A stretch of DNA of 35,690 nucleotides from a virus: the IMG/VR virus record IMGVR_UViG_3300045988_151125, one strand, 5' to 3'. Shown piece by piece: positions 1 to 35,690 of this stretch. The position numbers and the translations under genes were made by a program. Every line of letters starts with the position of its first letter. The first letter of the stretch is position 1. Below the pieces are notes generated by a model that was not told the origin of the DNA, ran no database searches, and worked only from the letters and a program-made list of their open reading frames with translations.

Positions 1-119
1 CCACAGTGCAAGATACGCATTGTGGGTTTCTTTATATAGGGGCATAGCTCAGTTGGTAGAGCAGCGGTCTCCAAAACCGCGTGCCGAGGGTTCGAATCCT
101 TCTACCCCTGCCATCCATA
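1..119. repeat. Left arm of a perfect 119-bp terminal inverted repeat
   Basis: nt 1-119 are the exact reverse complement of 35572-35690. Similarity continues imperfectly (one indel, a few SNPs) to ~190 on the left and ~35505 on the right. Confidence 0.95.
38..113 (+). tRNA. trnW: tRNA-Trp (anticodon CCA)
   Basis: 76-nt cloverleaf. Acceptor is AGGGGCA/TACCCCT with one C6:A67 mismatch. Anticodon stem GCGGT/ACCGC carries loop CTCCAAA. T arm is GAGGG-TTCGAAT-CCTTC, with discriminator G and encoded CCA. Confidence 0.9.
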
Positions 120-190: not shown

Positions 191-700
191 AGGAGGTTCT
201 CCTTAAAGAGCCGGCCTCTCACATCACCGTGCGTACCGACCGGTACATGGCGGTTCAACCGCATGAGTGCAAGAACTCGTAGTAGTTAGGGATGCTAAAG
301 TATCCCGCTGCTACGAGTCTTTTGTTTGTAATGGAACATTTTAATACAGGACTGCCGGCGATACGTCAATAGCCCAGTCTGGAATTTCCCCACTGGTAAG
401 CCCTGTCGGCCGGGATGCCCAGCTTTCTCAAGTTGGCAACCTTCGTTTTGGGCTTCTTCCACTGCTTCCAGATGTACATCGAAACCTGCGCCGCATCCAT
501 TCATCTCAAAACGTCAGCGTCCGCTTCATATGCCACACGAAAATAGCCAATCCAACCACGGATAGACACTTTCACTTCCTGCATCACTCTGCGGACATTG
601 CGTCTACGGTTTTGCTTTGTAAGAAGTTTCAGCGTTTTCTTTGCCCTGGCAAGAGACTTTCGGTGTTCACCACCTGGTTGTTGCTCTTGCCGGGCGCAAA
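189..700 (-). mobile_element. Internally deleted group IIC intron remnant (5' end, 3' part of the IEP ORF, domains V and VI)
   Basis: The minus strand starts TTGCGCCCGGCAAGAG right after a terminator hairpin and T-run, the typical IIC insertion context. Domain V-like hairpin GAACCGCCATGTACCGGTCGGTACGCACGGTG lies at 225-256 with a CGC triad. A DVI-like GGAGAACCTCC hairpin precedes the 3' end near 189. About 500 nt remain of an element that is normally ~1.9 kb or longer. Confidence 0.65.
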
Positions 701-716
701 ACCGAAAAAACCCCAC
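255..716 (-). pseudogene. Group II intron reverse transcriptase/maturase, C-terminal (X/thumb) fragment with in-frame stops
   Basis: A single frame reads ..VSIRGWIGYFRVAYEADADVLR*MDAAQVSMYIWKQWKKPKTKVANLRKLGIPADRAYQWGNSRLGY*RIAGSPVLKCSITNKRLVAAGYFSIPNYYEFLHSCG*. The RGWxxYF and IWKQWKKPKT maturase motifs are present. In-frame TGAs lie at 501-503 and 366-368, the latter at the conserved GYW Trp. The RT domain is absent. Confidence 0.7.
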
Positions 717-2448
717 CGGTTTGCCCGGTGGGGGTTTTCTGTTTTACCGAGAAAAAATAAAGTCTGCAACTATCAAGCCGATAGGCAACACAATGATTTT
801 TCCGGATATGGATGGCAGGGGTAGACCGTTGCCGGTCGTATCCAAAAAATGTGTCAAGTTCGGATAATGGCGCAGTTATGAGGTTTTCGGGCAGTTTATC
901 CGGGGCGATGTGCGCGGGATTCAGGACGATGCGCACCCGATGACCGCCGTCGTCGTCATCGTACACAATAATTTTCTCGACAAATTCACGGATAAACGCC
1001 CGCAGCTGTTCCGGCTGCATATTTTCAAGCCGGATATTTGTCCAGACCCGGCGCAGCTGTTCCACTGTGTCCGCCGTCTTGCGGGCATCCTCCCCCAGCG
1101 CGTCCACTTCTGCTTGCAGGGTGGCTTGCTGTTGTCGAAGGTCGTTTATGCGCTGAATGGTGAACGGCGCGTCAAGTCCGTTCTCTATGGCGGCATAAAG
1201 CCGATCAATTTTTTGCTGTAAAATGCCTATTTCTTTCCGCAACTCGCTGGCGCGTTCTGCCGGGGGCGTTCCCGGCAGCGTAGCGCCCAGCACAGCGGCG
1301 CAGATCGCGTCCATCGTTTCGGGGCGCAGGACAACGTGCTGCAGGTAGTCAACGACCGCCTTTTCCAGTTTGTCGGCGGGCACGGCGCGGACGTGCGCCC
1401 CATCGTCGTGCAAGCGCTTCTTATTGATACAGCTGTAATACCTGTATTCGACCGGCTGCCCATGGCTTTTATACCGGCGCATTTCGCCGCCCATCTGCCC
1501 GCCGCACCCGCCGCAGACGACCAGCCCGGAAAGCAAATAAAACGCTTTTGCCTTGTGCTGGGCATTGCGATGGCGGCGCTTTTCCATTTCGTCCTGTACG
1601 CGCTGCCAGTCTGCCGGATCTATGATTCGCGGCATACCGTTTTCGACGCAGACCCATTCGTCGCGGGGCTTCAACCGCCTGCGGTTGGTCTTGCCGTCAA
1701 AGTCGGCGGGCGCAAGGCGGTTCCAGATATACAGCCCGGTATATTTTTCGTTTCTCAAAATGTCGTATAGGCTATTTTTCCCAAACGGACGCCCCCGGCG
1801 GGTCGTGTAGCCGCCCGCGTTCAGCGCGTCGAGGATACCGGCATAACCAACATCTTGCAGATACAGCCGGAAAATCAGCTGCACCGCTTCCGCCTCGCGC
1901 GGGGCAACGACAAATTTGCCGGTCGTCTTATCCACGGCATAGCCCAGCGGCGGCGGCCCGCCTGTGTTGCGGGCGCTCATGGCATTTTCTCGCAAGCCTT
2001 TAACAACCTCTTGCGCAAGGTTCGCACTGTACCACTGATTTATCGCTTTCGTGACGTTCCGCATGAACTGCCCTTGCGGGGTGTCGTCGAAATGTTCCGA
2101 CGCCGACAGGACGCGAACACCATACCGCCGCAGCTGTGCTTCGACAAGGGTCTGCCGTTCCGCATTGCGGAAAAAGCGGTCGAGCTTGTGGACAATAATA
2201 AACTGCGCCCCGCCATTGATGGCATCCTGCACCATCTGGGTGAACTGCGGGCGCTCGCCGTTCCGTCCGCTGTTGCCGTGATCCTTGTAGACCTTTACCA
2301 ACTCAAAGCCGGACGCGGCAGCATAGGACACAATAGCCCGCTGCTGTGCCTCGATACTTTCTTCACGCTGCCCGGTCGTGGACTTGCGGCAGTAGCCGAA
2401 CGCGCGGGGCATATAATTATAAGCGTTGATGCGTTCCAAGATTATCAC
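667..2448 (-). CDS. Large serine recombinase (integrase)
   Basis: N-terminal resolvase motif AFGYCRKSTTGQ (catalytic Ser), a recombinase domain, a zinc-ribbon LVVCGGCGG...YYSC and a coiled-coil. The GTG start overlaps the upstream stop as GTGA. The last ~55 codons run through attL and the terminator hairpin. Confidence 0.9.
   Translation of the reverse strand: MIILERINAYNYMPRAFGYCRKSTTGQREESIEAQQRAIVSYAAASGFELVKVYKDHGNSGRNGERPQFTQMVQDAINGGAQFIIVHKLDRFFRNAERQTLVEAQLRRYGVRVLSASEHFDDTPQGQFMRNVTKAINQWYSANLAQEVVKGLRENAMSARNTGGPPPLGYAVDKTTGKFVVAPREAEAVQLIFRLYLQDVGYAGILDALNAGGYTTRRGRPFGKNSLYDILRNEKYTGLYIWNRLAPADFDGKTNRRRLKPRDEWVCVENGMPRIIDPADWQRVQDEMEKRRHRNAQHKAKAFYLLSGLVVCGGCGGQMGGEMRRYKSHGQPVEYRYYSCINKKRLHDDGAHVRAVPADKLEKAVVDYLQHVVLRPETMDAICAAVLGATLPGTPPAERASELRKEIGILQQKIDRLYAAIENGLDAPFTIQRINDLRQQQATLQAEVDALGEDARKTADTVEQLRRVWTNIRLENMQPEQLRAFIREFVEKIIVYDDDDGGHRVRIVLNPAHIAPDKLPENLITAPLSELDTFFGYDRQRSTPAIHIRKNHCVAYRLDSCRLYFFSVKQKTPTGQTGGVFSVLRPARATTRW
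705..739. terminator. Bidirectional rho-independent terminator shared by the two convergent tRNA-Trp units
   Basis: AAAAAACCCCACCGG-TTTGC-CCGGTGGGGGTTTT: a 9-10 bp GC stem with an A-run on one side and a T-run on the other. Confidence 0.75.
705..825 (+). repeat. attL-side direct repeat (terminator, trailer copy b, last 13 nt of tRNA-Trp)
   Basis: 705-825 matches 35467-35590 apart from compensatory changes in the hairpin, one SNP and a T-run length difference. TGGCAGGGGTAGA at 813-825 is the reverse complement of the tRNA 3' end. Homology stops at 825/826. Confidence 0.8.
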
Positions 2449-23681: not shown

Positions 23682-26348
23682 ATGGCATCAAAGGGTATCA
23701 AGGGCATTACTGTCGAATTTAACGGCGAAACACAAGGGCTTGACAAAGCGCTGCAAACGGTAAACACAAACGCCAAGAAAACACAAGCCGCCCTGCGCGA
23801 CGTAGACAAGGCGCTAAAGCTCAACCCAAGCAGCACCGAGCTGTTGACGGAAAAGCAAACCGCGCTGCAAGCCGCTGTTTCTGCTGCCCGCGACAAAGTG
23901 AAAGACCTTGAAGCGGTACAGGAACAAGTAAAACAGCAGTATGCAGCGGGCGAAATCGACCAAGGCGCATACGCCCAGTTTCAGCTTGAACTTGAAACCG
24001 CCAGCGCCAACCTGAAAAAGTTGGAAGAACAGCAGAAGCAGTTCGGCAATGTGGCAAAGCAGGTTTTGCAGGGAGCCGGGCAGAAAGTGCAGGATTTTGG
24101 CAAAAAAGTCGAAACTGCCGGGGAAAATATAACAAAAGTCGGCGACGGCATGACAAAGAACGTGACCACCCCCATCATGGCGGTGGGCACGGCTGCGGTG
24201 GCTGCATTTAGCGCCGTGGACGATGGCGCGGACACGATTGTGCGCGCCACCGGCGCAAGCGGCGACGCCCTCGACGGTCTGGTCGGCAGCTATGAAAACG
24301 TGGCTACCAAAATTCCGGCAGAGCTGGGCGATGTGGCGTCGGCAATCGGCGAGGTAAACACCCGGTTTCAGACGACGGGCCCGGAACTGGAAAGCCAGAC
24401 AGAGCTTTTCCTGAAATTCGCAAACATCACAGGCGGCGACGTCGTGGGGTCTGTTGACGATGCAGACAAAGCGCTGGAAGCGTGGGGAAGCGATGCAAGC
24501 GACCTGCCCGGATTTCTGGGCATGGTTGCCAAGGCGTCGCAGGATACCGGGCTGAACGCTCAAAAATTGATGCAGGACGTACAGGGAAACAGTGCGAGTT
24601 TCAAAGAGCTGGGCTTTTCGCTGGAAGAATCCATCAATTTTATGTCGATGCTTGACGCGAACGGCGTGGAATCCAGCACGGCGTTGGCGGGCTTGAAAAA
24701 AGCCGTCGTCAACCTGACCGATTCGGGCATGGACGAACACGAAGCCTTGCAGCAGGTCATCGGCAGCATTAAAGACGCTTCGACCGAAACCGAGGCACTG
24801 GAAAAAGCGCAGGAGGTTTTCGGCACTAAGGGCGCGGCAGAAATGGCTACCGCAATCCGTGACGGACGCCTTGACATTGACGATCTATCCGCCAGTATGT
24901 CGGACTACTCGACCGTAGTAGACGACACATTCGCAAATACTGTTGACGGCGTGGACGGCGCAAAAACAGCGGCAAACGCTGCAAAAATCGCGCTTGCCGA
25001 TCTGGGCGGCACTATCAGCGATATGCTGGGCCCGGTGTTGGAACAGGTAACGCAGATTTTACGTAACGCAAAAGCTGCCCTTGACAATATGGACGAAGGA
25101 CAGAAGCAAGCCATTGTAAAAGTGGCGCTGCTGGTTGCAGCAATCGGCCCGGCTATTGCGATAGGCGGGCGCGTCGTAGGAATCATCGGAACGGTTATAG
25201 AAAAAGGCGGCGCGCTCATCGGCTTTCTGGGCAAAGTTCCCGGCGCTGTGACGACGATCATCAGCGTGGCGAGCAAGGCGGGCAGTCTGATTTCTACCAT
25301 CGGCGGCGTGGCAATGCCCGCACTGTCGGCGGCAATCGGCTTTCTGACCTCGCCGATCGGCATTGCTGTCGCTGCCATTGTGGGCGCGGTTGCGGTTTTT
25401 GCACTGCTGTATAACAAGTGTGAGGGTTTCCGCAACGTCGTGAACACGGTCGGCTCGGCAATTCAATCGGGCTGGTCGTCGGCAATGACGGCGGTCGGCA
25501 GCCTCGCAAGCAAAGGCATGGAAGCCGCCCGCGCGACGGTATCCGAAAAGCTGACGAACATCCAAAATGCCTACACCCAGAACGGCGGCGGCATCAAGGG
25601 CACAGTAGCGGCAACTTTCGAGACTATCAAGAGCTTGCACACGGCGGGCTTTACATTCATCGACAATCTGACGGGCGGAAAGCTGTCCGCAATCGTGGCG
25701 AAGTTCAACTTGCTGGACGCAGCCAAGACCACCGTGTCGAACGTCATGGAGAGCGTGCGCGGGTTCTTTTCGTCGAAAATCGAAGCCGCCCGCGCGTCAA
25801 TCTCGCAGGGCGTCCAGAACATCAACAGCCAGTTTCCCGGCTTGTCCGGCGCGGCCTCGACAGTATCGAACATTATGGACGGCGTGCGCAGTGCGTTCGC
25901 GTCGAAAATCGAAGCTGCCCGCAGTGCGGTGTCACAGGGCATAGCCAACATCAAGAATTTGTTCAATTTTTCGTGGAGCCTGCCGCCGATTAGACTGCCG
26001 CACTTTTCCGTGTCTGGCAGCTTTTCCCTTAACCCGCCCAGTGTGCCGAAAATCGGCGTCAGCTGGTACAAACAGGGCGGCATCCTCAACGGCGCGCAGA
26101 TTTTTGGCAGCATGGGCGACACCCTGCTGGGCGGCGGCGAGGCTGGCGCGGAAGCAGTTCTGCCCCTGTCGAGCTTTTACAGCGAGCTGGCGGAAATCCT
26201 TGACGAACGGCTGGCGGCGTTGCAGCACACCGGCCCGCTGATTGAGCAGCATAACGAATACCACAGCCCGAAAGCACTAAGCCCGGCGGAAGCCGCCCGC
26301 GAGACCCGCGAAGCGACCCGGCAGGCAGTGCGCGCAATCCGAAAGTGA
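23682..26348 (+). CDS. Tape measure protein
   Basis: 888 aa with a coiled-coil N-terminus, central TM-like segments and internally repeated SKIEAAR motifs. Confidence 0.9.
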   Translation: MASKGIKGITVEFNGETQGLDKALQTVNTNAKKTQAALRDVDKALKLNPSSTELLTEKQTALQAAVSAARDKVKDLEAVQEQVKQQYAAGEIDQGAYAQFQLELETASANLKKLEEQQKQFGNVAKQVLQGAGQKVQDFGKKVETAGENITKVGDGMTKNVTTPIMAVGTAAVAAFSAVDDGADTIVRATGASGDALDGLVGSYENVATKIPAELGDVASAIGEVNTRFQTTGPELESQTELFLKFANITGGDVVGSVDDADKALEAWGSDASDLPGFLGMVAKASQDTGLNAQKLMQDVQGNSASFKELGFSLEESINFMSMLDANGVESSTALAGLKKAVVNLTDSGMDEHEALQQVIGSIKDASTETEALEKAQEVFGTKGAAEMATAIRDGRLDIDDLSASMSDYSTVVDDTFANTVDGVDGAKTAANAAKIALADLGGTISDMLGPVLEQVTQILRNAKAALDNMDEGQKQAIVKVALLVAAIGPAIAIGGRVVGIIGTVIEKGGALIGFLGKVPGAVTTIISVASKAGSLISTIGGVAMPALSAAIGFLTSPIGIAVAAIVGAVAVFALLYNKCEGFRNVVNTVGSAIQSGWSSAMTAVGSLASKGMEAARATVSEKLTNIQNAYTQNGGGIKGTVAATFETIKSLHTAGFTFIDNLTGGKLSAIVAKFNLLDAAKTTVSNVMESVRGFFSSKIEAARASISQGVQNINSQFPGLSGAASTVSNIMDGVRSAFASKIEAARSAVSQGIANIKNLFNFSWSLPPIRLPHFSVSGSFSLNPPSVPKIGVSWYKQGGILNGAQIFGSMGDTLLGGGEAGAEAVLPLSSFYSELAEILDERLAALQHTGPLIEQHNEYHSPKALSPAEAARETREATRQAVRAIRK

Positions 26349-27224: not shown

Positions 27225-28294
27225 TGGCGGAAAATCCTATTTTGTCGTTTTTTGCCCCCGACTTGACGCTGGTTTTCGATTTGGGCAAATACACAAGCCT
27301 GCGCTGGCGGGCGAAGTATTTCGAGCCGGGCGAATTTGAACTGCACACCAGCCCGGATTATTTCGGGCTGGTGAAGTATGGGCAAATCGTTTTGCGCGAC
27401 GACCGAAAGGACGGCGCGGTGGTCGAGGGCATTCAAGTGCAGACCGGCGACCTTGTTATTACAGGGCGCTTTCTGGCGGCAAAGCTCGCAGACGCGGGCG
27501 TCCGTGACGTCTACAATCTCAACTGCACCATCGAAGCAGCAATGCGCAAGATGGTGGCGGAACAGTACGGACGGACACAGCGCACGCTATCCATCAAGCT
27601 GCCGCAGGCGGGCGGATACACCCCCACCATACAGGTGCAAATCAGCCGGAAAAACTTGTTGACAGTAACCGAGGCGCTGGCGCGGGCTGGCGGTCTGGGC
27701 TACCGGGTGTTCGCCGATGTGGACGCCCGCTGTTTATATTTCGAGGTGTACAACGGCGTTGACCGCACCGTCCGGCAGGAAGAAAACAACCGCGTTGTTT
27801 TCTCTGACGGCGTGGACGATGACGGCTATAACAACGTGGACGACCCGAAATACACCGAAAATTACACCAACGCCAAAAATTACGCCCTTGTTTATGGCGA
27901 GGGCGAGGGCGACGCCCGCGTTTGCGTGGAAGTGGACGAAACCAACGGCGCAGACCGGCGCGAACTGCTGGTTGACGCCCGCGACCTGCAACAGGGCGAC
28001 CAGAGCGCGGCAGAATACCGCGCAGCGCTCACCCAGCGGGGGCGGGATAAGCTGAAAGAAAACCAGCCCACCGCCGCCCTTGAAACCGGCATAAAATCGA
28101 CCTCACAATTTGCCTATATGATGGATTGGCAACTGGGCGACATTGTGACCGGGCAAATTACCGCGTGGGGCATGGAGACCGACCAGCGTATCACAGAGGT
28201 GGAAGAAGTCTACGAGAGCAACGCCTTGACCGTAACGCCTACGCTGGGCACGCCCGCCCCCGAAGCCTATAATCTGGAGGATACGATAGCATGA
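27221..28294 (+). CDS. Tail-associated/baseplate protein (Sipho_Gp37-like)
   Basis: ATGA overlap with the upstream gene. The upstream ORF-track extension is rejected. Confidence 0.7.
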   Translation: MMAENPILSFFAPDLTLVFDLGKYTSLRWRAKYFEPGEFELHTSPDYFGLVKYGQIVLRDDRKDGAVVEGIQVQTGDLVITGRFLAAKLADAGVRDVYNLNCTIEAAMRKMVAEQYGRTQRTLSIKLPQAGGYTPTIQVQISRKNLLTVTEALARAGGLGYRVFADVDARCLYFEVYNGVDRTVRQEENNRVVFSDGVDDDGYNNVDDPKYTENYTNAKNYALVYGEGEGDARVCVEVDETNGADRRELLVDARDLQQGDQSAAEYRAALTQRGRDKLKENQPTAALETGIKSTSQFAYMMDWQLGDIVTGQITAWGMETDQRITEVEEVYESNALTVTPTLGTPAPEAYNLEDTIA

Positions 28295-29373
28295 GCGACA
28301 CAGCAGAACAAGCTATGCCCACAAAAAGCAACGCGGCAGAAAGCAGCGGCTTTCTTGACGGGCAGGAATACACAGCCGCTTTTTTGTATGAGTTCGTCGC
28401 CCTGCTGGTCGGCAACGGCGTCTATAATGGCGAGCTGACGACGACCGCAACCAGCGGCGACATGAGTATTACACACGGCGCGGGTCATGCGTGGATTAAC
28501 GGCGTACTGTACAAAAACAGCACGCCGTTTTCGCTGCCCATCAACACGGCAGACGGCAGCCTGAACCGATACGACAGCCTTATGGTGCGGCTTGATTTGT
28601 CGAGTAATGAGGCTTACGCAGTCGTTGTGCAGGGCGAATATGCCGCAACCCCGACCGCCCCGGCGGTCACGCGCAACGCAGAAACCTACGACCTGAAAAT
28701 CTGCGATATTTACGTCCCGGCGGGCTGCACTGAAATCACGCAAGCGCAAATTACCGACACCCGGCTGGATCCCGACGTCTGCGGCGTGCCGGTGTTCCCG
28801 GTCGAGCATCTCGACACAGAAGAATTTTATAAACAGGTGCTTGCCGATCTCGCGGAATTTAAGGCAGGCAGTGAAGCGGATTTCACGGAGTGGGTCAAGC
28901 TGACGAAACAGCAGACTGACGCCACGCTGAAAAATCTGGTCGATACCGTTAAATCCGACGCCGACACCGCCGACAAGACAGTCAAGGACGCCGCGACCGA
29001 CGCAACGGACAAAATCAGGGACTATCTTGCAGAGCTGCGCACCCTCATCGACGGTGACACCGTGGGGCTGCTGACAGACAAAATCGACACCGCGCGCGGG
29101 CTTATCGACAAGCTGACCGCAGCGGTCGAGGCTGGCGAAATCCACGCAAACACAGCGGGCACAGCGGATTTTGCACTTAGTGCAAAATCTGGGAATGTGG
29201 GCACGCTGCTGGGCGCTGCCGATGGGCAAGACCTGCAAGCGGTGCTTGCTGATTTCGTCCGTAACATTGAGGCAGGCAAGGTCGTCACGGCGGTAACGAC
29301 GCCGGGCGGCGAAGCCTACACCGCAGCAGACGGCACAGCCTACACAGCAACCCAGAAAATCAATTTTTTATAA
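28291..29373 (+). CDS. Tail fibre/baseplate upper protein with a C-terminal coiled-coil
   Basis: Position and ATGA overlap with the upstream gene. Confidence 0.65.
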   Translation: MSDTAEQAMPTKSNAAESSGFLDGQEYTAAFLYEFVALLVGNGVYNGELTTTATSGDMSITHGAGHAWINGVLYKNSTPFSLPINTADGSLNRYDSLMVRLDLSSNEAYAVVVQGEYAATPTAPAVTRNAETYDLKICDIYVPAGCTEITQAQITDTRLDPDVCGVPVFPVEHLDTEEFYKQVLADLAEFKAGSEADFTEWVKLTKQQTDATLKNLVDTVKSDADTADKTVKDAATDATDKIRDYLAELRTLIDGDTVGLLTDKIDTARGLIDKLTAAVEAGEIHANTAGTADFALSAKSGNVGTLLGAADGQDLQAVLADFVRNIEAGKVVTAVTTPGGEAYTAADGTAYTATQKINFL

Positions 29374-29387
29374 CGGAGGTTTGAAAA

Positions 29388-30251
29388 ATGCTTTTGAACA
29401 ACTTACCCGGCGCGGCTGCGGTGGCATCTGCGCATAAAATCGTTGTTACGACCGACGACGGCGACAAGACCATCACCGCCGAACAGCTGCGGGCGTGGGC
29501 AGAAAACGAAGCCGCCCACCCATACAACTACGGCAAGGAAATTGCCCTGACGTGGGATGAAATCAGCGCCAAGACGAAAAAAGGCGACTTTTCCGGGCTG
29601 CGTATCGGCGACTATAAAACCATTACGCTGACGACTGGCGAAGTCGTCATTATGGAGATTGCAGGCATTGACCCGTATTTCGGCAGCGGCGATCAGGAAG
29701 CCGGGCATCACATTTTGTGGGTGTCTCGCGACTGCCTTGCCACTACATACCAGATGCGCAGCAGCAACACCAACAACGGCACGAGCGCAGAACCTAACCC
29801 CTACCGCGCGTCCGCGCTGTTCAGCACCCTGCAAAACACAATTTTCCCCACCGTTCCGGCAGAAATCCGTGCCCACGTCATCGAAATGCGCGGCTTGCTG
29901 GAAAAGCGGTACAGCGGCAGCGGAACATTGAACAATAGCAACGACTGGTCGTGGTACAGCCGCGGAAAAGCCATTTTGCTGACGCCGATCGAGGTTTTCG
30001 GCACGGCGGGCTGGGGCGAAAGCGGATGGAGCAACGGCGGCGGCGTCAACGTACATCTGCCGCTGTTTGCCGGTTCGTCGAAACACTTCATCAAGCGCAA
30101 GGGCAACGGCGGAGAGCGCGTCAACTGGTGGCTTGCTGCGGCTTCTGCCGGAAACAGCACTAACTTCTGTCTTGTCAGCCGCTACGGCGACAGCGACAAT
30201 AGCGGCGCGAGCCATTCGTTCGGCGTGCCCCTGAGCTTTTTCACATCTTGA
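29388..30251 (+). CDS. DGR target protein (variable receptor-binding candidate, C-terminal VR)
   Basis: The last ~45 codons form the variable repeat. The C-terminus NWWLAAASAGNSTNFC(x)...FGVPL fits the style of CLec-fold DGR targets. Confidence 0.85.
   Translation: MLLNNLPGAAAVASAHKIVVTTDDGDKTITAEQLRAWAENEAAHPYNYGKEIALTWDEISAKTKKGDFSGLRIGDYKTITLTTGEVVIMEIAGIDPYFGSGDQEAGHHILWVSRDCLATTYQMRSSNTNNGTSAEPNPYRASALFSTLQNTIFPTVPAEIRAHVIEMRGLLEKRYSGSGTLNNSNDWSWYSRGKAILLTPIEVFGTAGWGESGWSNGGGVNVHLPLFAGSSKHFIKRKGNGGERVNWWLAAASAGNSTNFCLVSRYGDSDNSGASHSFGVPLSFFTS
30116..30239 (+). repeat. DGR variable repeat (VR)
   Basis: A 124-bp match to 30776-30899. All 13 mismatches are at TR adenines. Confidence 0.9.
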
Positions 30252-30314
30252 ATCTGCGCCGCCCATCTCGCCGCTTTATGCGGCGGAATGAGGGCGGCGA
30301 AAGGAAGTTAAAAA

Positions 30315-30752
30315 ATGAGCGTACCAAAACGCAACCGCAAGCCCAGCCGCATGGAATTTCTGGTTTTATGCGACGAAATCCGCGCGGATACCACCCGCGT
30401 GTTGATGAATCGCAGACTTGTGGAGCCGAAATGGAAATATACCGTTGCGGTTCCGGGCATTCAGATGGCGCAACAAATTTGCTGGTACATCAAGGCAGCG
30501 AACTACATTTTCCCCAAAGATGAAACAGCCCTCGCCACCCGCCGAGAACTGCAATATAAAGCGCTGGGCGCTTGCGCGGGGCTTGCCGACCATTTCCGCT
30601 ATTGCCTCGAAACCCTGTGCGAAACCGACCTGAACGGCAGCCCGAAAAACCTTGTTGAAAGATTCGGGAAAATTTGCGAGAAGATCAACAAGCTGGTGGA
30701 CGTCCTGAAGGGTTGGCAGGCAAGCGACACGGTGCGCACGCCGAAAGAATGA
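30315..30752 (+). CDS. avd: DGR accessory variability determinant (Avd-like four-helix-bundle protein)
   Basis: 145 aa, basic, located between VR and TR as in the canonical target-avd-TR-RT order. Confidence 0.75.
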   Translation: MSVPKRNRKPSRMEFLVLCDEIRADTTRVLMNRRLVEPKWKYTVAVPGIQMAQQICWYIKAANYIFPKDETALATRRELQYKALGACAGLADHFRYCLETLCETDLNGSPKNLVERFGKICEKINKLVDVLKGWQASDTVRTPKE

Positions 30753-30775
30753 TCCTACGGGTTTTCCGCTGTTTC

Positions 30776-30899
30776 GCGCGTCAACTGGTGGCTTGCTGCG
30801 GCTTCTGCCGGAAACAGCACTAACTTCTGTAATGTCAACAACAACGGCAACAGCAACAATAACAACGCGAGCAATTCGTTCGGCGTGCCCCTGAGATTT
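30776..30899 (+). repeat. DGR template repeat (TR)
   Basis: Non-coding. Its A-rich core AATGTCAACAACAACGGCAACAGCAACAATAACAAC would read N-V-N-N-N-G-N-S-N-N-N-N in the VR frame. Confidence 0.9.
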
Positions 30900-31139
30900 G
30901 CGGTTCAGCCAGTATTACGAGTAGGGCGGAAACCGCCTAAAAGACAGAGCATACCGCAAAGGAGTGGGAGACCCTGCCGGAAACGGCTAAATAAGGCGCA
31001 GCCTGCTGAAAGGCTGCAAGTCCGATGCGGCAGGTCGGACGCTTCTTGCATGGCTGGCGGCGCGGCAACCGCCAGCTGCATGGCCTGCCGCCCAGTAGTC
31101 CAGATACCGCACCATATAAGACTATACGGAGCCACCAAA
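30900..31139 (+). ncRNA. TR-to-RT spacer, presumed part of the DGR template/priming RNA
   Basis: 240 nt between the TR and the RT start. The ORF track shows it as an N-terminal extension of the RT, but there is no RBS and no RT similarity there. Confidence 0.45.
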
Positions 31140-32321
31140 ATGACAAGCAAGGAAAGACACGACAGACGATACGAACGGAGGCAACAACATCGAAAACAAA
31201 AGCAGACCGCCGCCCTTGTAGCGGCAAACGATTTTGACCGGGTTATCAGCTATAAAAGCCTGTACGCAGCCGCCCGGAAATGCCGGAAAGGTGTCTACTG
31301 GAAGGACAGCGTGCGCCGGTTTTATGCGAATTTACTGCTAAATCTGGCAGAAATCCACACAAGGCTTGAAAAGGGGCAGAGCTGCCACCAAAAGACCAAC
31401 CATTTTGTGATATGTGAGCGTGGACACCTGCGAGCTATCACAAGTCATAGATTCGGCGAGCGCGTAGTGCAGACGGCAATCAACAGCGAAATGCTGGTGC
31501 CGATGCTTACGCGCTCGCTGATTTACGACAACGGCGCAAGCCAGACCGGGAAAGGCACAGACTTTGCAGCCGACCGGCTGGAAACTGCCCTGCACAGGTA
31601 CTACGACCACCACGGCAACAACCGGGGCGCAATCGCGCTGCTGGATTTCCACGACTTTTTCGGTAGTATCGTCAAGGCGGAAGCGCTGGGCGACGTCGCC
31701 GAGAAATGCACAGACGCCCGCCTTATGCGTCTGCTATGCCAAGAGGTCAAGCCGGGCGGCGACGTGGGCATAGGGCTGGGCAGCCCGCTGAATCAAACGC
31801 TTGCGGTCAACTACGTCAACCGCTGCGACCATCGGCTTGAAAACACGCCGGGGGTTGAGGCAGTGGGCGTCTACATGGACGACAGGTGGATACTGGCGGA
31901 AAGCCGGGAAGTTCTGCGGGCGGCACTGGCGGCGATAACGCCGGAGCTGAAAGCCAAGGGCTTGCAGCTGAACACAGCGAAAACCAAAATCGTGCCCATC
32001 AATAAGCCGTTTCGGTATTGCCAAACGCGCTATTTTCTGTCAGACAGCGGCGCAGTTGTGCGCTTGCCGATGGGCAGAAAAACGACCCGCTGGCGGCAGA
32101 AGATTAAAGCCATGCGGCGTCTATACGACGCCGGGAAGATACCGACCGGCGAAGATATTCGCGGCTCATACGTGAGCACGCGAGCAACCTACACACGGCG
32201 AAACGCGCGGCGGGTACTGCTGCACATGGACGGGCTGTTCACGCAGCTTTTTGTACTGCCGGGCATCGCGCGACCATTGGAGGAAGGCCAAAATGGAAAA
32301 TGCAAAAAATACCACCGTTGA
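31140..32321 (+). CDS. DGR reverse transcriptase
   Basis: YMDD catalytic motif (GVYMDDRWIL), GASQTGKGTDFA, LGSPLNQTLA (motif 4-like) and LNTAKTKIV. RBS ACGGAG lies 9 nt before the ATG. Confidence 0.85.
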   Translation: MTSKERHDRRYERRQQHRKQKQTAALVAANDFDRVISYKSLYAAARKCRKGVYWKDSVRRFYANLLLNLAEIHTRLEKGQSCHQKTNHFVICERGHLRAITSHRFGERVVQTAINSEMLVPMLTRSLIYDNGASQTGKGTDFAADRLETALHRYYDHHGNNRGAIALLDFHDFFGSIVKAEALGDVAEKCTDARLMRLLCQEVKPGGDVGIGLGSPLNQTLAVNYVNRCDHRLENTPGVEAVGVYMDDRWILAESREVLRAALAAITPELKAKGLQLNTAKTKIVPINKPFRYCQTRYFLSDSGAVVRLPMGRKTTRWRQKIKAMRRLYDAGKIPTGEDIRGSYVSTRATYTRRNARRVLLHMDGLFTQLFVLPGIARPLEEGQNGKCKKYHR

Positions 32322-32589
32322 AATGATGGCAGAAACCCCGCGCCAGAAATACGAAAAGCTGGTGCCTATGCTGATTGAAGGCGCGGGCTACACCAAAAAC
32401 GAAGAAAACAAGATCCAGCGCGAAGCATTCGCCGACTTTTTGGCGGGCAAGACCGACGGACCGGCGATCACCGCATTCAAGACCTACACGGCAGAGGTGG
32501 ACAAGCTGAAAGCTGCTGCCGCGAAAGAATGCGGCTACACCCCGGCAGACGTGGAGACCGTCGCCGAAACCGATGCAGCGCAGTCCTGA
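32293..32589 (+). CDS. Hypothetical protein
   Basis: ATG with RBS GGAGGAAGG. It overlaps the RT 3' end by 29 nt. Confidence 0.55.
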   Translation: MENAKNTTVEMMAETPRQKYEKLVPMLIEGAGYTKNEENKIQREAFADFLAGKTDGPAITAFKTYTAEVDKLKAAAAKECGYTPADVETVAETDAAQS

Positions 32590-34331: not shown

Positions 34332-34416
34332 CAAATAAAAGCCCCCACCGGTTTGCCCGGTGGGGGCTTTCTGTTTTACAGAGAAAAACAAAGTCTGCAA
34401 CTATCAGACCGATAGG
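34271..34416 (+). repeat. Direct repeat, left copy (holin 3' end, terminator, truncated trailer copy c)
   Basis: Imperfect match to 35394-35548. Homology ends at ..CCGATAGG. Confidence 0.8.
34341..34377. terminator. Terminator after the holin gene, probably bidirectional
   Basis: GCCCCCACCGG-TTTGC-CCGGTGGGGGC (11-bp stem), with AAAA upstream and TTTCTGTTTT downstream. Confidence 0.75.
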
Positions 34417-34437
34417 AAGCACGGAGATCACTGTTTT

Positions 34438-35466: not shown

Positions 35467-35590
35467 AAAAGCCACCACCGGGTTTGCCCGGTGGTGGCTT
35501 TCTATTTTACCGAGAAAAAATAAAGTCTGCGACTATCAAGCCGATAGGCAACACAATGATTTTTTTTCGGATATGGATGGCAGGGGTAGA
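35467..35590 (+). repeat. attR-side direct repeat (terminator, trailer copy d, tRNA 3' end)
   Basis: Matches 705-825. Confidence 0.8.
35471..35508. terminator. Terminator hairpin of the attR-side repeat (serves the minus-strand tRNA-Trp)
   Basis: GCCACCACCGGG-TTTG-CCCGGTGGTGGC (12-bp stem) flanked by AAAA and TTTCTATTTT. Confidence 0.7.
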
Positions 35591-35690
35591 AGGATTCGAA
35601 CCCTCGGCACGCGGTTTTGGAGACCGCTGCTCTACCAACTGAGCTATGCCCCTATATAAAGAAACCCACAATGCGTATCTTGCACTGTGG
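35572..35690. repeat. Right arm of the perfect 119-bp terminal inverted repeat
   Basis: Reverse complement of 1-119. Confidence 0.95.
35578..35653 (-). tRNA. trnW: tRNA-Trp (anticodon CCA), identical inverted copy
   Basis: Exact reverse complement of 38-113. Confidence 0.9.

Follow-up and report, generated by a model that had tools for sequence, protein, structure and literature searches.

Genes and repeats of the locus

The window, i.e. the whole stretch of 35,690 nucleotides analysed here (IMG/VR virus record IMGVR_UViG_3300045988_151125), carries on its plus strand a gene for a 287-aa protein (29388..30251), a gene for a 145-aa protein (30315..30752) and a gene for a reverse transcriptase (RT; 31140..32321), with a variable repeat (VR; 30116..30239) at the end of the first gene and a template repeat (TR; 30776..30899) between the second and the third. 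This is the order target–avd–TR–RT of a diversity-generating retroelement (DGR), and every element named in the original prediction, which had been made from the letters of the DNA, is present. Gene annotation placed the cassette where it had been predicted to lie, with tail genes for Dit and Sipho_Gp37 on one side and lysis genes for a GH25 lysin and a holin on the other; the tail module ends with the target gene, which directly follows the genes for Dit, Tal (Sipho_Gp37) and a 360-aa fibre-like protein.

A repeat search of the window recovered exactly the predicted 124-nt direct repeat (30116–30239 and 30776–30899, both on the plus strand, 90% identity) as one pair, with no third copy anywhere in the window. 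VR spans residues 244–284 of the 287-aa target protein, in frame and at the 3' end of the gene. Base-by-base comparison bore out that the two copies are identical over their first 55 nt and differ at 30171, 30172, 30178, 30180, 30181, 30183, 30189, 30195, 30202, 30204, 30205, 30213 and 30236. In the programmatic alignment that the prediction had asked for, A stands in TR and another base in VR at all 13 mismatches; mismatches at other TR bases, named beforehand as speaking against a DGR, amounted to 0 of 13. With 33 A among the 124 nt of TR, the chance of 13/13 mismatches falling on A is about 4e-9. All mismatches save one affect position 1 or 2 of an AAY codon (12/13), the remaining one being the third base of AGA, and the translations are those originally given (CNVNNNGNSNNNNASN for TR, CLVSRYGDSDNSGASH for VR).

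Two details of this picture had to be revised. The mismatch 30236/30896 had been counted together with the mutagenic ones. However, this site holds C in 8/8 related VRs and A in every TR, the Ser at residue 283 is invariant in 26/26 protein variants, and five other DGRs of the clade have the same TR-A/VR-C mismatch 3–5 nt from the repeat end. Judged from these alignments, it is therefore a fixed difference between TR and VR and not a product of mutagenesis, which leaves 12 mutagenic substitutions in 9 codons of the window's VR. Furthermore, the number of diversifiable residues had been put at about 11, whereas TR contains 13 AAY codons, all of which are hypervariable in the population; the higher number follows because codons N246, N256 and N259 are merely unmutated in the window's copy. 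The diversified part of VR extends from codon N246 (30123) to codon 276 (30215).

The adjoining 3' end of VR (TCGTTCGGCGTGCCCCTGAGCTTT; 30216..30239, plus strand) is identical in 8/8 VRs, G+C-rich and IMH-like, and contains the VR-specific C at 30236, to which the TR-specific A at 30896 corresponds. A G+C-rich hairpin (30257..30299, plus strand) begins 18 nt downstream of VR. Folded as DNA it reaches -21.1 kcal/mol (z -4.55), a stability equalled by 0/200 shuffled sequences; no T-run follows it and a terminator scan did not report it. The sequence features of a putative IMH, i.e. the invariant segment GGCGTGCCCC, the fixed C/A difference and the hairpin, are thus all present. By analogy with phage BPP-1, segment 30216–30239 may serve as the IMH, and the hairpin, or a cruciform formed by it, is a candidate for target recognition.

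Reverse transcriptase and Avd

The ORF at 31140–32321 (plus strand, 393 aa) had been taken for an RT with a YMDD motif, with failure to match RT models named as the finding that would count against it. The models did match (RVT_1, 1.2e-9; phrog_1423 RT, 2.6e-58), the reading frame is intact, YMDD occupies residues 245–248, and the closest solved structure is that of the BPP-1 enzyme bRT (8ub7_A), whose template- or dNTP-contacting and catalytic residues F66, R74, D138, G182, Q187 and D215/216 are conserved in the window RT. The protein also groups with the annotated DGR RTs of phages Shimadzu, Roos and Taranis. Its motif 4 reads 'NQ', in contrast to 'SQ' in the six other DGR RTs aligned, and this NQ is common to all members of its lineage, including ones with fresh A-only mismatches.

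The 145-aa ORF between target gene and TR (30315..30752, plus strand) is, as far as sequence comparison and modelling can tell, a divergent accessory variability determinant (Avd) of the four-helix-bundle type. Over its full length it is 25% identical (E 3e-13) to the annotated Avd of Shimadzu (orf23). Its AF2 model (pLDDT 90.1) shows four long helices and has 2gsc and 2rld as best folds in the PDB, the latter designated 'S23 ribosomal protein family', which we take to be a family related to Avd. Weak matches to Pfam bAvd (PF22296) occur in 5/36 members of its protein family; the window protein itself has no Pfam or NCBIfam match (families bAvd PF22296 and 23S_rRNA_IVP PF05635) and no similarity to BPP-1 Avd detectable by BLASTP or hhalign.

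Spacer RNA and its predicted pairings

The DNA between TR and the RT gene matches the Rfam family RT-2 RNA (RF03077) over its full length (30907..31152, plus strand; model positions 1–222 of 222; 79.7 bits against a gathering score of 40), with the match ending at the RT start codon. Besides two tRNAs this is the sole match in an Rfam scan of the window. The RNA, which we annotate as the spacer (Sp) RNA, is a divergent member of its family, since other DGR phages reach 145–175 bits and the window sequence does not form the model's first stem; it features a GAAA-type hairpin (30925–30937) and a conserved AAAGGAG block (30958–30964). RT-2 has been an orphan Rfam motif, to which its discoverers gave no specific role (Weinberg et al. 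2017). In Shimadzu, Roos, Taranis, Dulem virus 34 and the loci L013 and L018 we find it separating TR from RT; in L017, on whose short contig no TR was found, it immediately precedes the RT gene. Altogether, RT-2 RNA accompanies the RT gene of seven other phage loci, and an A-biased TR/VR pair is present in six of these. The RNA is absent from two deletion variants (L007 and L008).

Two long-range pairings of Sp are predicted. The 5' flank of TR (GGGUUUUCCGCU; 30759..30770, plus strand) could pair with Sp 30963–30974 in a helix of 12 bp, G-U pairs allowed, analogous to the stop duplex of BPP-1; cognate helices at the homologous site in six RT-2 DGRs comprise 8–12 bp, and their sum is reached by 1/720 permutations. 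The TR 3' end with the adjoining junction (UUUGCGGU; 30897..30904, plus strand) could pair with Sp 30953–30960 (ACCGCAAA), as an analogue of the primer duplex, with cognate helices of 6–8 bp compared with a non-cognate mean of 3.7 and 2/720 permutations reaching the observed sum. These statistics refer to six loci that are not all independent, and the pairings are not significant in these six loci when the position is left free. From the covariation and the analogy we infer that Sp would pair with the 3' end of TR and with its 5' flank in a manner resembling the BPP-1 primer and stop duplexes. A scan for a promoter-like site for the TR transcript found none.

The target protein

The N-terminal region of about 240 aa in the target protein had been described as no domain that was recognized. 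According to Pfam, AF2 and fold matches, it belongs to the same DUF6273 domain as VR, i.e. residues ~50–287, VR included, are modelled as a single globular domain (pLDDT 84.8 for the AF2 model), preceded by a low-confidence segment of residues ~1–47. The match of the target itself to Pfam DUF6273 (PF19789; E 7.6e-5) reaches 23.1 bits against a gathering cut-off of 23.5, and the family is precomputed for most of 132 target homologues, close and distant ones. The best fold match in the PDB is the T. ramosa IgA peptidase (9qa6, E 6e-5), and the paper on this structure assigns DUF6273 to the enzyme's N-terminal domain. In BFVD, 26 proteins match at E <= 1e-3; many bear the name DUF6273, and phage RBP and tail-fibre proteins occur among the fold matches as well.

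A structure prediction had been proposed in order to look for a CLec fold. The model has a fold in common with DUF6273 proteins and C-lec-like domains, with VR on its C-terminal strands and a probability of 0.82 for the match to the Lcl C-terminal domain; classical C-type lectins in the PDB match it weakly. Our C-lec assignment is taken from the literature, in which DUF6273 has already been published as a C-type-lectin-like target domain of DGRs. Homologues share residues ~48–287 and differ in their N-termini, which is what one would expect of a tip domain whose attachment modules can be exchanged. By analogy, this DUF6273 domain is most likely the receptor-binding tip of the phage.

Diversification among relatives and in the population

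When each VR is compared with its own TR, all mismatches again fall on TR adenines in four independent relatives (L001/L002, 11/11; L006, 15/15; L003, 17/17). TR is nearly invariant across the relatives, with differences at positions 85 and 91 only, while the VRs all differ; at these two non-A positions the VR of each relative carries the base of its own TR. At the level of sequence this demonstrates a one-way flow of information from TR to VR. Among 26 target proteins that are >=86% identical, 7–12 different residues are found at each of the 13 AAY codons, and the pairwise difference per site is 0.678 at adenine-bearing codons as opposed to 0.075 elsewhere. In this set of proteins, hypervariability in the population is confined to the adenine-bearing codons. 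Two target proteins (P0171 and P0180) have 0 differences outside VR and 11 differing residues inside, which argues for very recent mutagenesis in this lineage.

The machinery itself is conserved in some relatives and carries deletions in others. RT is intact in L001, L002 and L006, and Avd is 100% identical in L001 and L006. In relatives with ~95% DNA identity, Avd is 100% and RT ~97–98% identical, which points to purifying selection on both proteins. The RT of L003 has a 23-aa in-frame deletion, and TR/RT or avd-TR-RT is missing from L007 and L008, which retain a diversified VR. Since target genes persist in such relatives, the avd-TR-RT cassette is dispensable.

Discussion

RT, Avd, TR, Sp and target are all present and intact in the window, just as the prediction of a complete DGR had it, and VR/TR differences are adenine-only both here and in four independent relatives. 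On the evidence of these sequences, the DGR is genuine, complete and recently active, and we are highly confident that the locus is best explained as a complete DGR, carried by a temperate siphovirus as prophage in a gut host of the Clostridia type, that operates as follows. A transcript of the short avd-TR gap, TR and the ~240-nt spacer of the RT-2 family would be bound by RT and Avd. RT would copy TR into cDNA and misincorporate opposite template adenines, and the cDNA would replace VR at the 3' end of the target gene, with TR itself never being altered. Each of the 13 AAY codons could in this way turn into a codon for any of 15 amino acids, with no stop codons arising, which would provide ~10^15 variants of the C-terminal surface of the DUF6273 (C-type-lectin-like) domain. 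Several further steps are proposed in analogy to BPP-1. The Sp strand that ends at A30960 and is paired to the TR 3' end would prime in cis; cDNA would start beside the TR-specific A30896 and terminate at the duplex of 5' flank and Sp; the G+C-rich, invariant end of VR would, together with the hairpin downstream, serve target recognition; and the target protein would bind a receptor.

A rival view is that the window's DGR no longer mutagenizes and is structurally intact but silent or fossil, with the VR diversity of its relatives being old. The diversified VRs that outlived the loss of TR/RT or avd-TR-RT in L007 and L008, the deletion in the L003 RT, the three unmutated AAY codons of the window VR and the NQ in place of the SQ of six other DGR RTs could all be read in this way, and a study of Faecalibacterium prophages reports DGRs without detectable activity under its conditions. 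However, RT, Avd, TR and Sp are all intact here, the high identity of Avd and RT speaks for purifying selection, the pair P0171/P0180 attests to very recent mutagenesis in the lineage, and NQ also occurs in members with fresh A-only mismatches, so that silence appears improbable to us. An RT of another class altogether, be it from a group II intron, a retron or a defence system such as DRT/Abi, next to a repeat pair that arose by an unrelated duplication would fit weak NCBIfam matches to group II intron RT/maturase and Drt3a models, but these lie far below the cut-offs (45.9 versus 300 and 25.1 versus 200 bits). With the A-specific pattern persisting on realignment and recurring in relatives, bRT as best solved relative and RT-2 RNA beside RT genes of seven other phage loci, six with A-biased TR/VR pairs, this explanation is effectively refuted.

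Somewhat less far-fetched, albeit still rather unlikely, is a real DGR whose target does not bind the host receptor but is a virion decoration or adhesin, directed to mucus glycans or immunoglobulin, or even a non-structural protein. An IgA peptidase (9qa6) with DUF6273 in its N-terminal domain is the best solved structure, DUF6273 DGR targets are also published on Hoc-like or 'tentaclin' decoration proteins, and no PHROG or NCBIfam family names the target protein. Against this, the gene closes the tail module after Dit, Tal and the fibre-like protein and precedes the lysis genes, the annotated homologue nearest to its product, Shimadzu's 'tail fibre protein', is encoded at the same position, the protein has no Ig-like domains, and the exchange of N-termini on the shared residues ~48–287 is as for a tip domain. 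We therefore prefer a complete DGR that diversifies a receptor-binding tip.

Taken jointly, the data also allow a more general, tentative reading, which we would not yet call probable. RT-2 may be the spacer RNA of a large DGR clade in gut Clostridia phages, with a scaffold that differs from the Phage_DGR RNA of BPP-1 and exceeds it in size. The TR 3' end might dock on the 5' side of the conserved single-stranded 'AAAGGAG...' block of RT-2 and the TR 5' flank on the 3' side of this block, and the invariant TR-specific A at the junction, always C in VR, may mark initiation and act as a built-in sign of directionality. Judging from this lineage, the Ser of 'SQ' in motif 4 would also be replaceable by Asn without loss of adenine mutagenesis.

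In prokaryotes and their viruses, no natural system for the targeted hypermutation of proteins is known other than DGRs, and each well-defined DGR extends the catalogue of diversified binding scaffolds and of possible engineering parts. The present DGR is of a well-known kind and leaves the knowledge of DGRs unchanged; DUF6273 targets and DGR-rich prophages of gut Clostridia have already been published. It is of use as a clean reference case: the 2.9-kb cassette is compact, the DUF6273 target is small (287 aa) and consists of a single domain, diversification is recorded in a population, deletion variants occurring in nature mark the cassette boundaries, and the pairings predicted between the RT-2-type spacer RNA and the TR ends are directly testable.

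Comparison with known DGRs

The prototype is the DGR of BPP-1 (mtd, avd, TR, brt), a podovirus of a proteobacterium. 'Bordetella-phage-type', as the original prediction put it, holds for architecture and mechanism but not for the spacer RNA family or the Avd sequence. Gene order, location next to tail-fibre and lysis genes and adenine-specific VR/TR differences are common to both. In both, VR lies at the 3' end of its target gene, has a G+C-rich end that is invariant, and is followed by a hairpin; primer and stop duplexes of the same kind are predicted for the window. The RTs are 25% identical, with catalytic and template-/dNTP-contacting residues kept. The two systems differ in the target (Mtd versus DUF6273), in motif 4 (SQ in bRT, NQ here) and in the spacer RNA, which in BPP-1 is Rfam Phage_DGR (RF03022, 127 positions) and here RT-2 (RF03077, 222 positions).

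Among phages of gut Clostridia, Faecalibacterium phages Roos, Pioen and FP_Taranis and the gut phages nd4/nd12 also have DGRs that target DUF6273 C-lec-like domains, with RTs about 32% identical to that of the window. Roos and Taranis share the RT-2 RNA between TR and RT (175 bits) and the TR-A/VR-C end mismatch; nd12 gave no RT-2 match at the Rfam threshold. The 'target2' proteins of nd4/nd12 are, like the window target, single-domain DUF6273 proteins with a C-terminal VR, whereas the targets of Roos and Taranis (546 aa) and the tentaclins with their Ig-like domains are larger or multi-domain.

The closest annotated relative is the DGR of Roseburia phage Shimadzu (LR596903.1: orf22 tail fibre, orf23 Avd, TR, orf24 RT), in which target, Avd, TR, RT-2 RNA, RT, a small ORF and an endolysin gene follow in the same order as in the window. 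Its target is homologous over 96% of the length (35% identity), its RT is 38% identical and its Avd, as mentioned, 25%; there is no similarity at the nucleotide level. The phages differ in their tails, i.e. a myovirus-type baseplate (Baseplate J, P2 gpI/gpU) in Shimadzu versus siphovirus features (Dit, Sipho_Gp37, tape measure) in the window, and in target length (431 versus 287 aa). A second DGR target has been reported for Shimadzu, and no second one was found in the window. Both share an RT-2 RNA (144.9 bits in Shimadzu), the same fixed TR-A/VR-C end mismatch and the same predicted Sp pairings.

A complete and recently active retroelement

The window contains a complete, recently active diversity-generating retroelement (DGR), and our analysis thus supports the original prediction while correcting some of its details. 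A repeat search found a sole long direct repeat in the region, i.e. a variable repeat (VR, 30116–30239) and a template repeat (TR, 30776–30899) of 124 nt and 90% identity, which are the same over their first 55 nt. When the two were compared base by base, the predicted list of 13 mismatch positions was reproduced exactly, with A in the TR and another base in the VR in 13 of 13 cases. Twelve of these mismatches affect the first or second base of AAY codons in the target gene (29388–30251), and the last one is the third base of an AGA. As adenine occupies 33 of the 124 TR positions, a random placement of 13 mismatches would hit only this base with a probability of approximately 4e-9; a chance duplication as the origin of the pair was ruled out by the same base-by-base comparison. 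No extra copy of either repeat end was found in the 35.7-kb window, which therefore carries a single VR. The 13th mismatch concerns residue 283 (AGA in the TR, AGC in the VR), which is Ser in all 26 target proteins compared; since the third base is C in 8 of 8 VRs and A in all TRs, this is a fixed TR/VR difference and not a product of mutagenesis.

The reverse transcriptase (RT) is a protein of 393 aa (31140–32321) recognized by RVT_1 (E 1.2e-9) and by PHROG 1423 ‘reverse transcriptase’ (E 2.6e-58), and its best match among solved structures is 8ub7_A (E 6.6e-10), a chain with the sequence of Brt from Bordetella phage BPP-1. A group II intron, retron or defence RT was rejected, as the group II intron and defence RT models of NCBIfam were matched far below their cut-offs. 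In an alignment with six other DGR RTs including that of BPP-1 (bRT), the window RT conserves F89, R98, D169, G214, Q219 and YMDD (245–248), the equivalents of bRT F66, R74, D138, G182, Q187 and D215/D216, which are catalytic or contact template or dNTP (Handa et al., bioRxiv 10.1101/2023.10.23.563531). Its motif 4, however, reads GSPLNQ (N218, 31791–31793), whereas all six other aligned RTs have SQ; this NQ variant is fixed across the lineage, including members with fresh adenine-only VR changes. In the related locus L003, the RT lacks 23 aa through an in-frame deletion that is located shortly before motif 4 and flanked by two GDV tripeptide repeats (window equivalent 31697–31757), and the VR of this locus still carries 17 adenine-only mismatches.

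The 145-aa product of the ORF at 30315–30752 is supported as Avd by a full-length match to orf23 of Roseburia phage Shimadzu, which is annotated as Avd (25% identity, E 3e-13), by weak matches to Pfam bAvd in its relatives (5 of 36; a HMMER scan found 44 relatives) and by a confident AlphaFold model of a four-helix bundle (pLDDT 90.1). The best PDB fold matches of this model are 2gsc and 2rld (TM 0.82 and 0.71 on target); the latter comes from the ‘S23 ribosomal protein family’, which we take to be the family to which Avd belongs. At the sequence level, Pfam, NCBIfam and PHROGs gave no usable match for the window protein and a PDB search nothing meaningful; no similarity to BPP-1 Avd was detected, and hhalign of the Avd family profile against this protein gave no alignment. 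At approximately 95% DNA identity, relatives encode an Avd that is 100% identical.

The target protein and its diversification

With 23.1 bits, the 287-aa target narrowly misses the threshold (23.5) of Pfam DUF6273, and PF19789 is carried by most of its 132 homologues. In the structural model (pLDDT 84.8, pTM 0.80), residues from approximately 50 to the C-terminus form one globular domain, of which the VR provides the last five strands. A PDB sequence search with the target returned nothing meaningful. By fold, the model comes closest to 9qa6 (E 6e-5), the IgA peptidase of T. ramosa, whose N-terminal domain is assigned to DUF6273 in the corresponding paper; further matches include the C-terminal domain of Legionella Lcl (probability 0.82) as well as numerous proteins of phages (DUF6273, ‘receptor binding’ and ‘tail-collar fibre’ proteins), and classical C-type lectins match weakly. 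A role of DUF6273 as a C-type-lectin-like DGR target has already been published (PMC10743442; bioRxiv 10.1101/2024.10.15.618418; PMC11792537). Given the DUF6273 matches and the single globular domain in the model, the N-terminal region of approximately 240 aa that had previously not been recognized is mostly part of the same domain as the VR, with only residues ~1–47 being separate. Many homologues (P0057, P0075, P0078, P0084, P0092 and others) align only from about residue 48 and range from 250 to 484 aa in total length; sequence comparison suggests a modular exchange of the attachment region ahead of a conserved DUF6273 tip.

That diversification has operated in this lineage can be followed in related loci of 94–96% DNA identity (L001/L002, L003, L005 and L006). 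All VR mismatches to the respective TR are located at TR adenines, i.e. 13 of 13 in the window, 11 of 11 in L001/L002, 15 of 15 in L006 and 17 of 17 in L003. The TRs themselves vary at only two non-adenine positions (85 and 91), where each VR has the base of its own TR, which, judged from these sequences, is the signature of TR-to-VR transfer. Among 26 target proteins with an identity of 86% or more to that of the window, 7–12 different residues occur at each of the 13 TR AAY codons (residues 246, 256, 259, 262, 264–266, 268, 270–273 and 276), and adenine-bearing codons make up 15 of the 19 most variable columns, with a pairwise difference per site of 0.678 as compared to 0.075 elsewhere. Two of the homologues, P0171 and P0180, show no difference outside and 11 different residues inside the VR. 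Thus, a few AGC/ACT codons can be diversified in addition to all 13 AAY codons, and the earlier estimate of ~11 residues was an undercount; under the standard AAY rule, the theoretical repertoire is 15^13, i.e. ~2e15 variants. In L005, the TR has AAT instead of the TCT of the window TR (window equivalent 30804–30805, residue 253), which adds a 14th diversifiable codon and accounts for why this residue varies (C/Y/L/G) among some of the proteins.

Prophage context and relatives

The window is a temperate siphovirus prophage. Its left part carries a large serine recombinase (667–2448, minus strand) together with an exonuclease and a methylase; the structural part comprises terminase, portal, a ClpP-type protease and tape measure, then Dit, a Sipho_Gp37 tail protein and a 360-aa fibre-like protein, and is followed by the DGR, a 98-aa ORF, a GH25 lysin and a holin. 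The tape-measure gene contains a 95-nt direct repeat (25731–25825 and 25860–25954; 72% identity, 129-nt spacing). The 360-aa ORF (28291–29373) lacks a Pfam domain, and its PHROG matches (E 5e-45) carry the label ‘head protein’ or ‘virion structural protein’; its location, flanked by Sipho_Gp37 and the DGR target, points to a tail fibre or adaptor and not to a head component. The 98-aa ORF (32293–32589) overlaps the RT stop codon and has no family match; as it is kept in DGR-deleted relatives, it is not part of the cassette.

These relatives, L007 and L008, have deletions at window equivalents 30831–32105 and 30303–32092, respectively, one having lost the 3′ part of the TR, the spacer RNA region (Sp) and most of the RT gene, the other avd, TR and most of the RT gene. 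The two deletions stop no more than 13 nt apart in the RT C-terminal region; ~220 nt at the end of the RT gene are left in both loci, as is an intact target with a diversified VR, which is now frozen.

The window ends (1–185 and 35506–35690) form a 185-nt inverted repeat, 94% complementary, that includes tRNA-Trp(CCA) genes at 38–113 (plus strand) and 35578–35653 (minus strand). Such convergent duplicate tRNAs are unusual and could be an assembly effect. Next to the tRNAs, an 84-nt element occurs in direct copies at 718–801 and 35481–35564 (95%), with a diverged copy at 34349–34432; the direct copies, which bracket the prophage and its serine recombinase, may be att-related. Among species-representative genomes, the single match was to a Subdoligranulum variabile MAG (4.2-kb contig), which is weak evidence for the host. 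Megablast found no match to the cassette among 50,697 phage records, and the nearest annotated phage was found at the protein level only.

A spacer RNA with predicted long-range pairings

The Rfam motif RT-2 (RF03077) matches 30907–31152 in full length (79.7 bits, threshold 40), starting 8 nt past the TR and ending at the RT start codon. It occupies the same place in Shimadzu, the Faecalibacterium phages Roos and Taranis, Dulem virus 34 and two metagenomic phage contigs (145–175 bits); in a seventh locus, L017, it is directly upstream of the RT gene, on a short contig that yielded no TR. In the work of Weinberg et al. 2017 (PMC5737381), RT-10 (BPP-1) was the only RT motif linked to a DGR, with speculation on the others, and our literature search found no paper connecting RT-2 with DGRs.

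When Roos and Taranis are treated as a single case, there are six independent RT-2 DGRs that have a TR/VR pair, and all of them show the same TR-A/VR-C mismatch 3–5 nt from the repeat end. This mark led to two predicted long-range pairings. In a predicted primer-like duplex, the TR bases directly 3′ of the TR-specific A pair with a Sp strand ending just 5′ of a conserved GGAG/GGAA block (UUUGCGGU at 30897–30904 with ACCGCAAA at 30953–30960); cognate helices have 6–8 bp as compared to a non-cognate mean of 3.7, and the observed sum was reached by 2 of 720 permutations. The second predicted duplex is stop-like and joins the TR 5′ flank to the Sp strand immediately 3′ of this block (GGGUUUUCCGCU at 30759–30770 with AGUGGGAGACCC at 30963–30974), with cognate helices of 8–12 bp, a cognate sum reached by only 1 of 720 permutations, and a compensatory change in locus L018 and Dulem virus 34.

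We infer these pairings from six partly related loci. Without anchoring, the best TR-end:Sp helix did not surpass shuffles in any one locus, RNAduplex with the 70-nt upstream flank and TR-3′ plus Sp as partners gave sprawling, non-significant duplexes, and the longest helix with at most one mismatch was significant for the window and Shimadzu only, so that the pairing claims rest on the position-anchored comparison of cognate with non-cognate partners. A GAAA-type hairpin (30925–30937) is a candidate Avd-binding stem-loop, and a stable hairpin 3′ of the VR (30257–30299) could, by analogy to BPP-1, assist target recognition. A 15-nt stretch at the avd 3′ end (30736–30750) is complementary in 14 of 15 positions to 30874–30888 (TR positions 99–113) and hence to VR 30214–30228; 0 of 100 shuffles gave a helix of equal length, and no homologous pairing was seen in other RT-2 DGRs. 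A scan of 30200–31200 for sigma-70 promoters and intrinsic terminators yielded nothing beyond shuffle expectation.

Comparison with known DGRs

The clade to which this DGR belongs, gut Clostridia phages with DUF6273 targets, has already been described. Three points are modestly new: the orphan RT-2 RNA is assigned a role as the spacer of DGRs, with predicted, covarying pairings to each of the two TR ends; the TR-A/VR-C mark is fixed throughout the clade; and motif 4 of the RT occurs as an NQ variant. Shimadzu, the closest annotated phage, has the same cassette order as the window but, unlike this siphovirus, a myovirus baseplate, which indicates that the cassette travels between tail types. 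In the prototype DGR of BPP-1, the spacer matches RF03022 (Phage_DGR) rather than RT-2, and the ribonucleoprotein contains a template:primer duplex and a stop duplex, which the two duplexes predicted here match in kind.
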